Shown in pieces: positions 18,308-18,404 of a stretch of DNA of 64,000 nucleotides. The stretch lies in IMG/VR virus record IMGVR_UViG_3300028833_000078; one strand, given 5' to 3'. The DNA comes from a virus (Duplodnaviria > Caudoviricetes). The notes under the pieces were generated by a model. It did no database searches. It was not told the origin of the DNA and saw only the letters and a list, made by a program, of their open reading frames with translations. The translations under genes and the position numbers were made by a program. Within the stretch, counting starts at the first letter, position 1, and every line of letters begins with the position of its first letter.

Positions 18308-18404
18308 TGGCAGGGGTTGTAGGACTCGAACCCACACCACTGGCTTTGGAGACCAGTACTCTACGGTTTTGAAGACCGCTGCGCTACCATTACACCAAAC
18401 CCCT
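18308..18404 (-). tRNA. tRNA-Trp with two anticodon arms: UCA (opal reader) and CCA
   Basis: AGGGGTT/AACCCCT-G-CCA; GCGGT-CTTCAAA-ACCGT, then AGAGTA, then CTGGT-CTCCAAA-GCCAG; T arm TTCGAGT. Confidence 0.8.

Follow-up and report, generated by a model that had tools for sequence, protein, structure and literature searches.

How can a bacterium with the standard genetic code attach tryptophan to a phage tRNA that reads UGA? The question is raised by a 97-nt tRNA gene, here called tRNA(UCA), in a 64,000-nucleotide stretch of phage DNA (the window). This tRNA carries two complete anticodon arms in tandem. The first (arm 1) has the UGA-reading triplet UCA, while the second (arm 2), in the position of a variable arm, displays CCA, the normal tryptophan anticodon. 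The charging of phage suppressor tRNAs by a standard-code host was posed as an open question by Borges et al. (bioRxiv 10.1101/2021.08.26.457843). As laid out below, the comparative evidence shows that the gene is real, that it encodes a suppressor tRNA turning UGA into Trp, and that its pseudo-anticodon arm is conserved; this second arm is probably an identity handle for the tryptophanyl-tRNA synthetase (TrpRS).

The phage and its genetic code

The window has a G+C content of 29.5%. Its genes include those for gyrase A and B, DNA polymerase III alpha, NAD ligase, a DnaB-like helicase, RecJ, and NrdD, and further for an M23 peptidase, an SLH-domain protein, and a GH25/CW_7 lysin. This gene set points to a Gram-positive, Clostridia-like host; a Firmicute that uses the standard code is probable.

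What does TGA mean in this phage? When TGA is taken as sense, the long-ORF cover of the window rises from 72% to 92%, and none of 56 window genes ends in TGA. In-frame TGA codons number 83 against 153 TGG, such that about one-third of tryptophans are written as TGA. They are unevenly spread: 28 of 57 window genes, the replication core among them, are free of TGA, while 19 of the codons fall in a single minus-strand gene of 1676 aa. IMG/VR contains no close relatives of this TGA-rich protein, which hence offers no codon-level comparison.

The meaning of the codon can be read at conserved positions of other genes (Table 1). The NrdD column at codon 213, TGA in the window, is TGG in three relatives, and at codon 337 the window has TGG and one relative has TGA. 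In the lysin, the invariant Trp that is TGA in the third CW_7 repeat is encoded by TGG in repeats 1 and 2. By this interchange of TGA and TGG at invariant Trp columns, in NrdD and in the CW_7 repeat, TGA means Trp in the phage. Alignments to PDB entries at the TGA positions of NrdD and the M23 peptidase show aromatic or variable residues. As is expected of a suppressor, the anticodon matches an in-frame stop codon, and in homologues the recoded codon corresponds to a single amino acid. It is the late genes of the phage that the TGA-to-Trp recoding affects.

A separate observation concerns NrdD itself, which lies at window positions 50849-53108 (+) in two overlapping frames (50849-52213 and 52089-53108), where relatives have one ORF of 735-740 aa. 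Possible causes of the split are a frameshift, a sequencing error, and a programmed shift.

Anatomy of the two-arm tRNA

Table 1. Parts of tRNA(UCA), its neighbor, informative TGA codons, and parallel isoleucine tRNAs (window coordinates unless a locus is named)
Feature	Position	Strand	Basis
Whole tRNA, UGA reader with Trp identity, encoded CCA end	18308..18404	-	ARAGORN, Rfam, fold, identical copy L385:12799-12895
Acceptor 5' strand AGGGGTT, pairs with AACCCCT (18312-18318)	18398..18404	-	Sequence
D arm GTGT-AATGGTA-GCGC	18381..18395	-	Fold and sequence
Arm 1, decoding anticodon arm GCGGT-CTTCAAA-ACCGT; UCA at 18370-18372	18363..18379	-	ARAGORN, fold, sequence
Linker AGAGTA, 6 nt, between arm 1 and arm 2	18357..18362	-	Sequence
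Arm 2, pseudo-anticodon arm CTGGT-CTCCAAA-GCCAG; CCA at 18347-18349	18340..18356	-	Fold, sequence, family covariation
Linker TGGT, 4 nt, between arm 2 and T stem; class I variable-loop size	18336..18339	-	Sequence
T arm GTGGG-TTCGAGT-CCTAC	18319..18335	-	Fold and sequence
Acceptor 3' strand AACCCCT, discriminator G73, encoded CCA	18308..18318	-	Sequence
Ordinary-length tRNA-Trp(CCA), 5 nt downstream of tRNA(UCA)	18229..18302	-	ARAGORN, Rfam
In-frame TGA, NrdD C-terminal part, codon 213	52725..52727	+	Column Trp in 120/120 homologues
In-frame TGA, GH25/CW_7 lysin codon 332, invariant Trp 'gkWGNG' of third CW_7 repeat	1340..1342	-	Repeat alignment
Long-arm tRNA-Ile(UAU), 92-97 nt	L393:14037-14131; L272:1742-1833 (-); 28 loci among L522-L640		

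The coordinates of all parts of tRNA(UCA) were confirmed base by base, and the five-arm cloverleaf is both the minimum free energy and the centroid fold. The anatomy given in a preliminary description of the locus (97 nt, both arms, and the linker) thus proved exact, on the minus strand. The same description called the gene the only UGA reader in the window, and so it is by ARAGORN, which finds 15 tRNAs, all on the minus strand, with the one at 18308-18404 as the sole tca anticodon. ARAGORN labels it tRNA-SeC, but because of its length only. At this position the general Rfam tRNA model (RF00005) scores 55.8 bits, compared to a gathering score of 29, and is the clan winner, with no match reported for the tRNA-Sec model (RF01852).

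Which synthetase should recognize such a molecule? According to a review of tRNA identity (PMC9976931), the bacterial tRNA-Trp determinants in the acceptor are G73, A1-U72, and G2-C71 to G5-C68. The acceptor of tRNA(UCA) has every one of them, namely A1-U72, G2-C71, G3-C70, G4-C69, G5-C68, and G73 (position 18311), which bears out the earlier description of it as Trp-type. What departs from the identity set is the anticodon, C34-C35-A36 in tRNA-Trp. The decoding arm has U34-C35-A36 instead, and CCA is found only in the arm-2 loop.

The two arms are both well formed. A single nucleotide (A) lies between the D stem and arm 1, the usual spacing in tRNAs. Arm 2 has 5 bp and a 7-nt loop, CUCCAAA, identical to the anticodon loop of the neighboring tRNA-Trp. 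It fits the definition of a two-arm (pseudo-anticodon) tRNA used here: a second hairpin of ~5 bp with a loop of the form N-U-(cognate anticodon)-A-N, the triplet being one base off the decoding anticodon. The body is nearest to phage tRNA-Trp as well, with Trp making up 6 of the 10 nearest neighbors versus 4% of the references. The region between arm 1 and the T stem, 27 nt with linkers of 6 and 4 nt and a 7-nt loop, together with the Trp-type D arm, sets the molecule apart from class II (Ser/Leu/Tyr) tRNAs.

The adjacent tRNA-Trp(CCA) is probably co-transcribed with tRNA(UCA). Its own elbow is atypical, with no GG in the D loop (AAUGUUA) and a T loop, UUAGAAU, that has A at the usual C56. Some other features of the tRNA array and its surroundings can be noted. 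On the minus strand at 18889-19916, two protein genes interrupt the array: one, with a single in-frame TGA, is formate/nitrite-transporter-like, and the other encodes an HNH endonuclease; a GIY-YIG gene lies at 33400-34302. At 17393-17456 (-) Rfam gives a borderline tRNA match, its 29.0 bits being equal to the threshold, where ARAGORN makes no call. A weak YrlA-like match overlaps this stretch, which may hold a degenerate tRNA or a tRNA-like RNA.

An identical copy and a family of relatives

The gene order of the window recurs in a 133.6-kb contig from another sample (k119_38054 of ENA ERZ27291684), in which the flanking proteins are about 97-98% identical. Its tRNA(UCA) (L385:12799-12895) is identical at 97/97 positions, and the adjacent tRNA-Trp(CCA) differs by 4 changes, one of them a compensatory stem pair. 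Judged from this comparison, the tRNA(UCA) gene is real and under constraint. The tandem order of tRNA(UCA) and then tRNA-Trp(CCA) is kept in this contig and also occurs in 10/66 family loci. In syntenic but more distant relatives (L387-L389), of which partial stretches were compared, there is neither a tRNA(UCA) nor an excess gain of ORF cover with TGA as sense, in keeping with the pattern so far as those stretches reach. A blastn search of GenBank phages with the tRNA cluster gave no close relative of the two-arm tRNA.

How widespread is the design? A pattern scan of IMG/VR requiring both loops found ~25 tRNAs of the same kind. A second scan was blind to the second loop and required a UCA loop, a long gap, and a T loop. 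The two scans combined yield at least 67 distinct long-arm tRNA(UCA) genes. Among the matches listed, 14 are true tRNA-Sec genes, none of which has UCCA in the arm (0/14), and at least 53 are distinct non-Sec genes, of which 53/53 have the UCCA loop. The loop-blind scan leads to the same result for the genes that it newly contributed: among the matches listed, UCCA is present in 32/32 that are non-Sec, which exceeds what chance would give.

Within these genes (at least 53), the arm-2 loop reads N-U-C-C-A-A-A, with U, C, C, and A each in 53/53 and the next A in 51/53, and G73 is likewise present in 53/53. The stem has been preserved as a structure. Each of its 5 pairs can form in 89-98% of the genes and is represented by 4-6 pair types, while pairing at positions 6 and 7 is no better than chance and shifted controls reach 25-70%. 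RNAalifold independently predicts the helix, with 4-15 compensatory sequences per pair. The linkers are mostly 4-5 nt on the 5' side and mostly 3-4 nt, often xGGT, on the 3' side. For comparison, ordinary class II tRNAs of the same loci have 5' linkers of 1 nt, 3' linkers of 1-3 nt, and loops of mostly ~4 nt. The arm is carried by more than one kind of body: ~31 are Trp-like, 4 have a Ser-like D arm, and others have long D stems. The check that had been proposed at the outset, for conservation and covariation of both arms in related phages, therefore came out in favor of arm 2, with an unbroken UCCA and five covarying stem pairs. The opposite outcome, relatives with single-arm versions only, is contradicted by the at least 53 distinct tRNA(UCA) genes that keep the arm.

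A complete scan for tRNA(UCA) of normal length with the same motifs returned 44 distinct genes, so the two-arm type is at least as common. Reading TGA as sense gives a local gain of ORF cover at 26/45 loci with the arm, compared to 0/10 Sec loci. A further 9 distinct copies were found in MAG contigs and one Bacteroides isolate scaffold. There is one exception to the family rule, at L190:2933 onward (+), a Trp-like tRNA(UCA) of 98 nt, mislabeled Phe(aaa) by ARAGORN, whose long variable region is without UCCA. Other long tRNAs in the loci that are not Ser, Leu, or Tyr (Asn, Arg, Lys, Cys, and Gln) have no pseudo-anticodon, only small hairpins with 4-nt loops or none that is clear. Lastly, a scan of genome contigs returned mostly true tRNA-Sec genes with UCCAA in the arm. 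These tRNA-Sec genes, from Caulobacteraceae, Bryobacterales, and a few other lineages (L330, L332-L381), have GUCCAA in the variable-arm loop, at a rate consistent with chance; this is judged to reflect chance plus inheritance within clades.

The loop follows the amino acid, not the codon

What happens to the second loop when the codon or the amino acid is a different one? Scanning for the Trp-type D arm together with UCCAA, while leaving arm 1 free, turned up a tRNA at L395:7800-7892 that has a Trp body, CUA in arm 1, and the arm-2 loop GUCCAAA, and that adjoins a tRNA-Trp(CCA). It is the only suppressor of its 146-kb contig (IMGVR_UViG_3300028805_000058), a TAG-recoded phage in which ORF cover with TAG as sense goes from 0.73 to 0.89 overall and is 0.98-0.99 across 80-120 kb. 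TAG is in frame in its structural genes. Aligned to a close standard-code relative, these TAG codons face W in 16/25 cases, Y or F in 5/25, and Q in 0/25; the TGG codons of the phage have the same alignment profile, and its Q codons align with Q. A TAG = Trp code such as this was not found reported for phages in the literature searched. In the 120-140 kb part of the same contig, ORF cover also rises with TGA as sense, from 0.57 to 0.83.

A second parallel comes from phAss-1, a published TAG-to-Gln phage (PMC10607447). Its genome (OQ749652.1, ~62.4 kb) encodes a 91-nt tRNA(CUA) (L410:1486-1576 (-)) with an extra hairpin, CUCUGAA, which is the Gln loop, next to a tRNA(CUA) of normal length. The TAG codons of its TerL align with Q or E within the same TerL family. 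Nor is phAss-1 alone, as an unbiased scan of IMG/VR for long-arm tRNA(CUA) found a UYUGA hairpin in 57/91. Those without it mostly have Ser/Leu/Tyr-like bodies. The Ser, Leu, and Tyr synthetases mostly need no anticodon.

The third parallel involves a sense codon. In a scan built on one D-arm scaffold, 28/28 long-arm members were tRNA-Ile(UAU), the 89 others being of normal length. The extra loop is CAGAU(A/U)A in 27/28, on covarying stems, and shows GAU, the ordinary Ile anticodon.

The association of anticodon and loop (UCA/CUA versus CCA/YUG) has a p of 3e-31. To the extent that sequence comparison can tell, the extra loop names the amino acid and is one base away from the true anticodon. 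That it follows the amino acid is concluded because the CUA/Trp, CUA/Gln, and UAU/Ile cases all fit.

Which synthetase gene accompanies the tRNA?

Some phages solve the charging problem by bringing their own enzyme. If the second arm serves a synthetase unadapted to UCA, such phages would be expected to do without it. A 2025 preprint (PMC12636597) reports phage TrpRS:tRNA pairs and that Trp was inserted by 13/13 analyzed phage tRNA(UCA) in E. coli extract; its text does not mention a second arm. The phage "code change module" described there (Jade phages and the AP1 and HF2 pairs) addresses the same problem as the present locus, namely, charging a UGA reader with Trp. It differs in bringing its own TrpRS and in having tRNAs of normal length. 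The contigs studied here fall along the same line, as trpS is never found beside the two-arm type: it is present in 0/68 contigs with the arm versus 4/42 with a normal-length tRNA(UCA) (Fisher p = 0.019, for contigs that are not independent). Among contigs at least 90% complete, the counts are 0/16 and 2/10. Nonetheless, 38/42 contigs with a normal-length tRNA(UCA) are also without trpS, so a charging handle is not obligatory. For the phage studied here, of which the window covers 64 kb of ~133 kb, the charging enzyme is likely the host TrpRS.

As to the four trpS-bearing contigs (L223, L228, L232, and L261, with trpS at L325-L328), all encode a full TrpRS. Two of their tRNAs have G73 and two A73, the same split as that of the published AP1 and HF2 pairs.

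How the second arm might work

If arm 2 is a handle, the two functions of an anticodon arm would be divided between two hairpins. Arm 1 would decode UGA on the ribosome. Arm 2, on flexible linkers of 4-6 nt, would display the normal Trp anticodon, and the anticodon-binding domain of TrpRS would read its loop. Together with G73 and the A1-U72/G2-G5 acceptor, arm 2 would keep a tRNA that lacks C34 an efficient and specific Trp acceptor.

How could the enzyme gain access to this loop? Both TyrRS and TrpRS come to the tRNA on the side of its variable arm. The tip of such an arm does not occupy the place of the anticodon, and therefore a new docking mode or a helix swap would be needed. The arm might dock as a variable arm, or arm 2 might stack under the D stem during charging. 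Such a stacking swap is plausible because the junction is symmetric, arm 1 being canonical from the D side and arm 2 from the T side. For the Gln and Ile parallels, simple docking would be harder, since GlnRS and IleRS are monomers.

A broader reading embraces all three amino acids. The arm may be a portable pseudo-anticodon (CCA for Trp, YUG for Gln, and GAU for Ile) that the host synthetase reads, thereby freeing the anticodon for a stop or rare codon. The case for this generalization seems evenly balanced. On this broader reading, the host synthetase possibly reads the arm after a swap of the two arms at the D stem.

The preliminary description had suggested that the CCA arm lets a host TrpRS charge an opal suppressor. 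This is the best-supported reading, on comparative grounds (the loop is conserved, trpS is absent beside the arm, and the loop tracks the amino acid), although that the enzyme is the host's is likely rather than certain. The description had also raised the idea of a switch between UGG- and UGA-reading forms. Part of this may survive, in that a swap of the arms under the D stem, which the symmetric junction would permit, is a possible route for reading the handle; decoding of UGG by arm 2 is unlikely given the separate tRNA-Trp(CCA). Finally, processing of the RNA by excision finds no support, because there is no intron-like feature and a tRNA-Trp(CCA) already lies 5 nt downstream.

Other explanations for the second arm

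Might arm 2 be a mere relic of a duplicated anticodon arm, or a site for a partner other than a synthetase, such as a modification enzyme, a phage protein, or a nuclease for which it is a decoy? The likeness of both arms to the Trp anticodon arm is what a duplication would be expected to leave. Moreover, the link between loop and TrpRS is comparative, and tRNA(UCA) of normal length work without the arm. A relic, however, would have to explain why U-C-C-A has been kept in all of the at least 53 genes while the stems turn over, why the arm is also found on Ser-like and long-D-stem bodies, and why the loop becomes YUG or GAU exactly when the amino acid changes. As for another partner, the cognate synthetases are the only known specific readers of the three loops (identity rules, PMC9976931). 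Relic or alternative docking site, this explanation is unlikely.

A bolder proposal is that the molecule has two heads, refolding so that either arm comes to occupy the anticodon position, with arm 1 reading UGA and arm 2 reading UGG. In its favor is the symmetry of the five-way junction, where 1 nt separates the D stem from arm 1 and 3-4 nt, like the variable loop of a class I tRNA, separate arm 2 from the T stem. Both triplets read codons of the same amino acid in every class found, and the window's own arm 2 is a perfect arm with a 5-bp stem and a 7-nt CUCCAAA loop. The proposal is nevertheless quite improbable. A separate tRNA-Trp(CCA) is 5 nt away here and in tandem in 10/66 loci, so that arm 2 would be superfluous as a UGG reader. 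In any case, wobble could let U34 read UGG as well. Furthermore, arm 2 often breaks the rules for decoding arms: among the at least 53 genes its loop is 9 nt in 12/53 and has G at the position-32 equivalent in 25/53, the Ile version has A at the universal U33 position and stems of 3-4 bp, and the Gln versions are built on stems of 3-4 bp.

The tRNA-SeC label given by ARAGORN suggests yet another identity, that of a selenocysteine or Ser-type class II tRNA, charged by SerRS via the long arm, so that UGA would mean Ser or Sec. Three features would agree with this: the UCA anticodon, the length of the variable region, and G73, since E. coli tRNA-Ser has G as its discriminator too (PMC9976931). 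The architecture does not, since the acceptor and T stems are 7/5 with a 4-bp D stem rather than 8/5 with a 6-bp D stem, and the tRNA-Sec model of Rfam makes no claim. Class II arms in these loci have 1-nt 5' linkers, 1-3-nt 3' linkers, and mostly 4-nt loops, compared to 4-5 nt, 3-4 nt, and a 7-nt loop for arm 2. With TGA aligning to invariant Trp and swapping with TGG, an identity as Ser or Sec is scarcely credible.

Last, an assembly chimera of two tRNA genes, the error that the preliminary description cautioned against and for which nothing speaks but the unusual length, is practically untenable, as the identical 97-nt gene was assembled independently from another sample and, across many samples, more than 60 further contigs show the same design.

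Relation to known systems

Among the explanations weighed, an identity handle for TrpRS thus remains the probable one. Does it have precedents? A full-text literature search found no description of a natural tRNA with two anticodon arms. Candidates that proved not to be precedents are PMC13715818, whose "anticodon-like triplet" concerns acceptor stems, and PMC5389517 (allo-tRNA) and PMC13092985 (4-bp anticodon stem), which do not describe a two-arm design.

The closest counterpart is synthetic. Mukai 2020 (Int J Mol Sci, PMC7590224) engineered a pseudo-anticodon V-arm that gives His charging, which changing GUG to GAG in the loop abolishes. As is proposed for the phage tRNAs, an amber suppressor was given a variable arm that copies the cognate anticodon arm, and the loop triplet governs charging. 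The differences are that the design is synthetic, uses an allo-tRNA chassis and HisRS, and relied in part on an extra fused anticodon-binding domain. The paper cites no natural tRNA example.

Long arms between the anticodon and T arms are otherwise familiar from class II tRNAs (Ser, Leu, and bacterial Tyr) and tRNA-Sec, and in tRNA-Ser the synthetase uses the arm. Unlike arm 2, class II arms are recognized by size and orientation and have no anticodon-like sequence, and tRNA-Sec has its 8/5 architecture and 6-bp D stem. Hairpins that imitate an anticodon arm are known from RNAs such as the E. coli thrS operator, yeast aminoacyl-tRNA synthetase mRNAs, and the HIV-1 tRNA-like element, where the anticodon-binding domain of a synthetase reads the hairpin (PMC9976931). 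Again unlike arm 2, these serve in regulation or packaging, are not inside a tRNA, and are not part of charging. E. coli tRNA-Trp suppressors (su+7 with CUA, and UCA variants) do combine a Trp body with a stop anticodon, but on a single arm. The CUA form of E. coli tRNA-Trp is charged with Gln (PMC9976931), in contrast to the phage tRNA that has CUA and a CCA arm in a genome where TAG aligns with Trp.

The phage itself resembles the TGA-to-Trp gut and rumen phages of Borges et al., which have a UGA-reading tRNA and TGA in late, structural, and lysis genes, not early ones. What sets the present phages apart is the conserved pseudo-anticodon arm; the text of Borges et al., as searched, mentions neither the variable region nor the word "anticodon."

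Implications

If arm 2 is a charging handle, it would provide a simple answer to the question left open by Borges et al. It would be a new kind of tRNA identity element, a copy of the anticodon outside the anticodon position, and the natural counterpart of a design otherwise built by hand (PMC7590224). It would also explain why such tRNAs are annotated as tRNA-SeC, tRNA-Pyl, or undetermined. On the practical side, two-arm tRNAs could supply ready-made parts for genetic-code expansion, and the loop rule may let the meaning of a recoded stop be read from the tRNA gene, as with TAG = Trp versus TAG = Gln. A portable arm, if true, would explain how standard-code hosts translate the recoded genes of their phages and would allow codes like the TAG = Trp code of the 146-kb phage.
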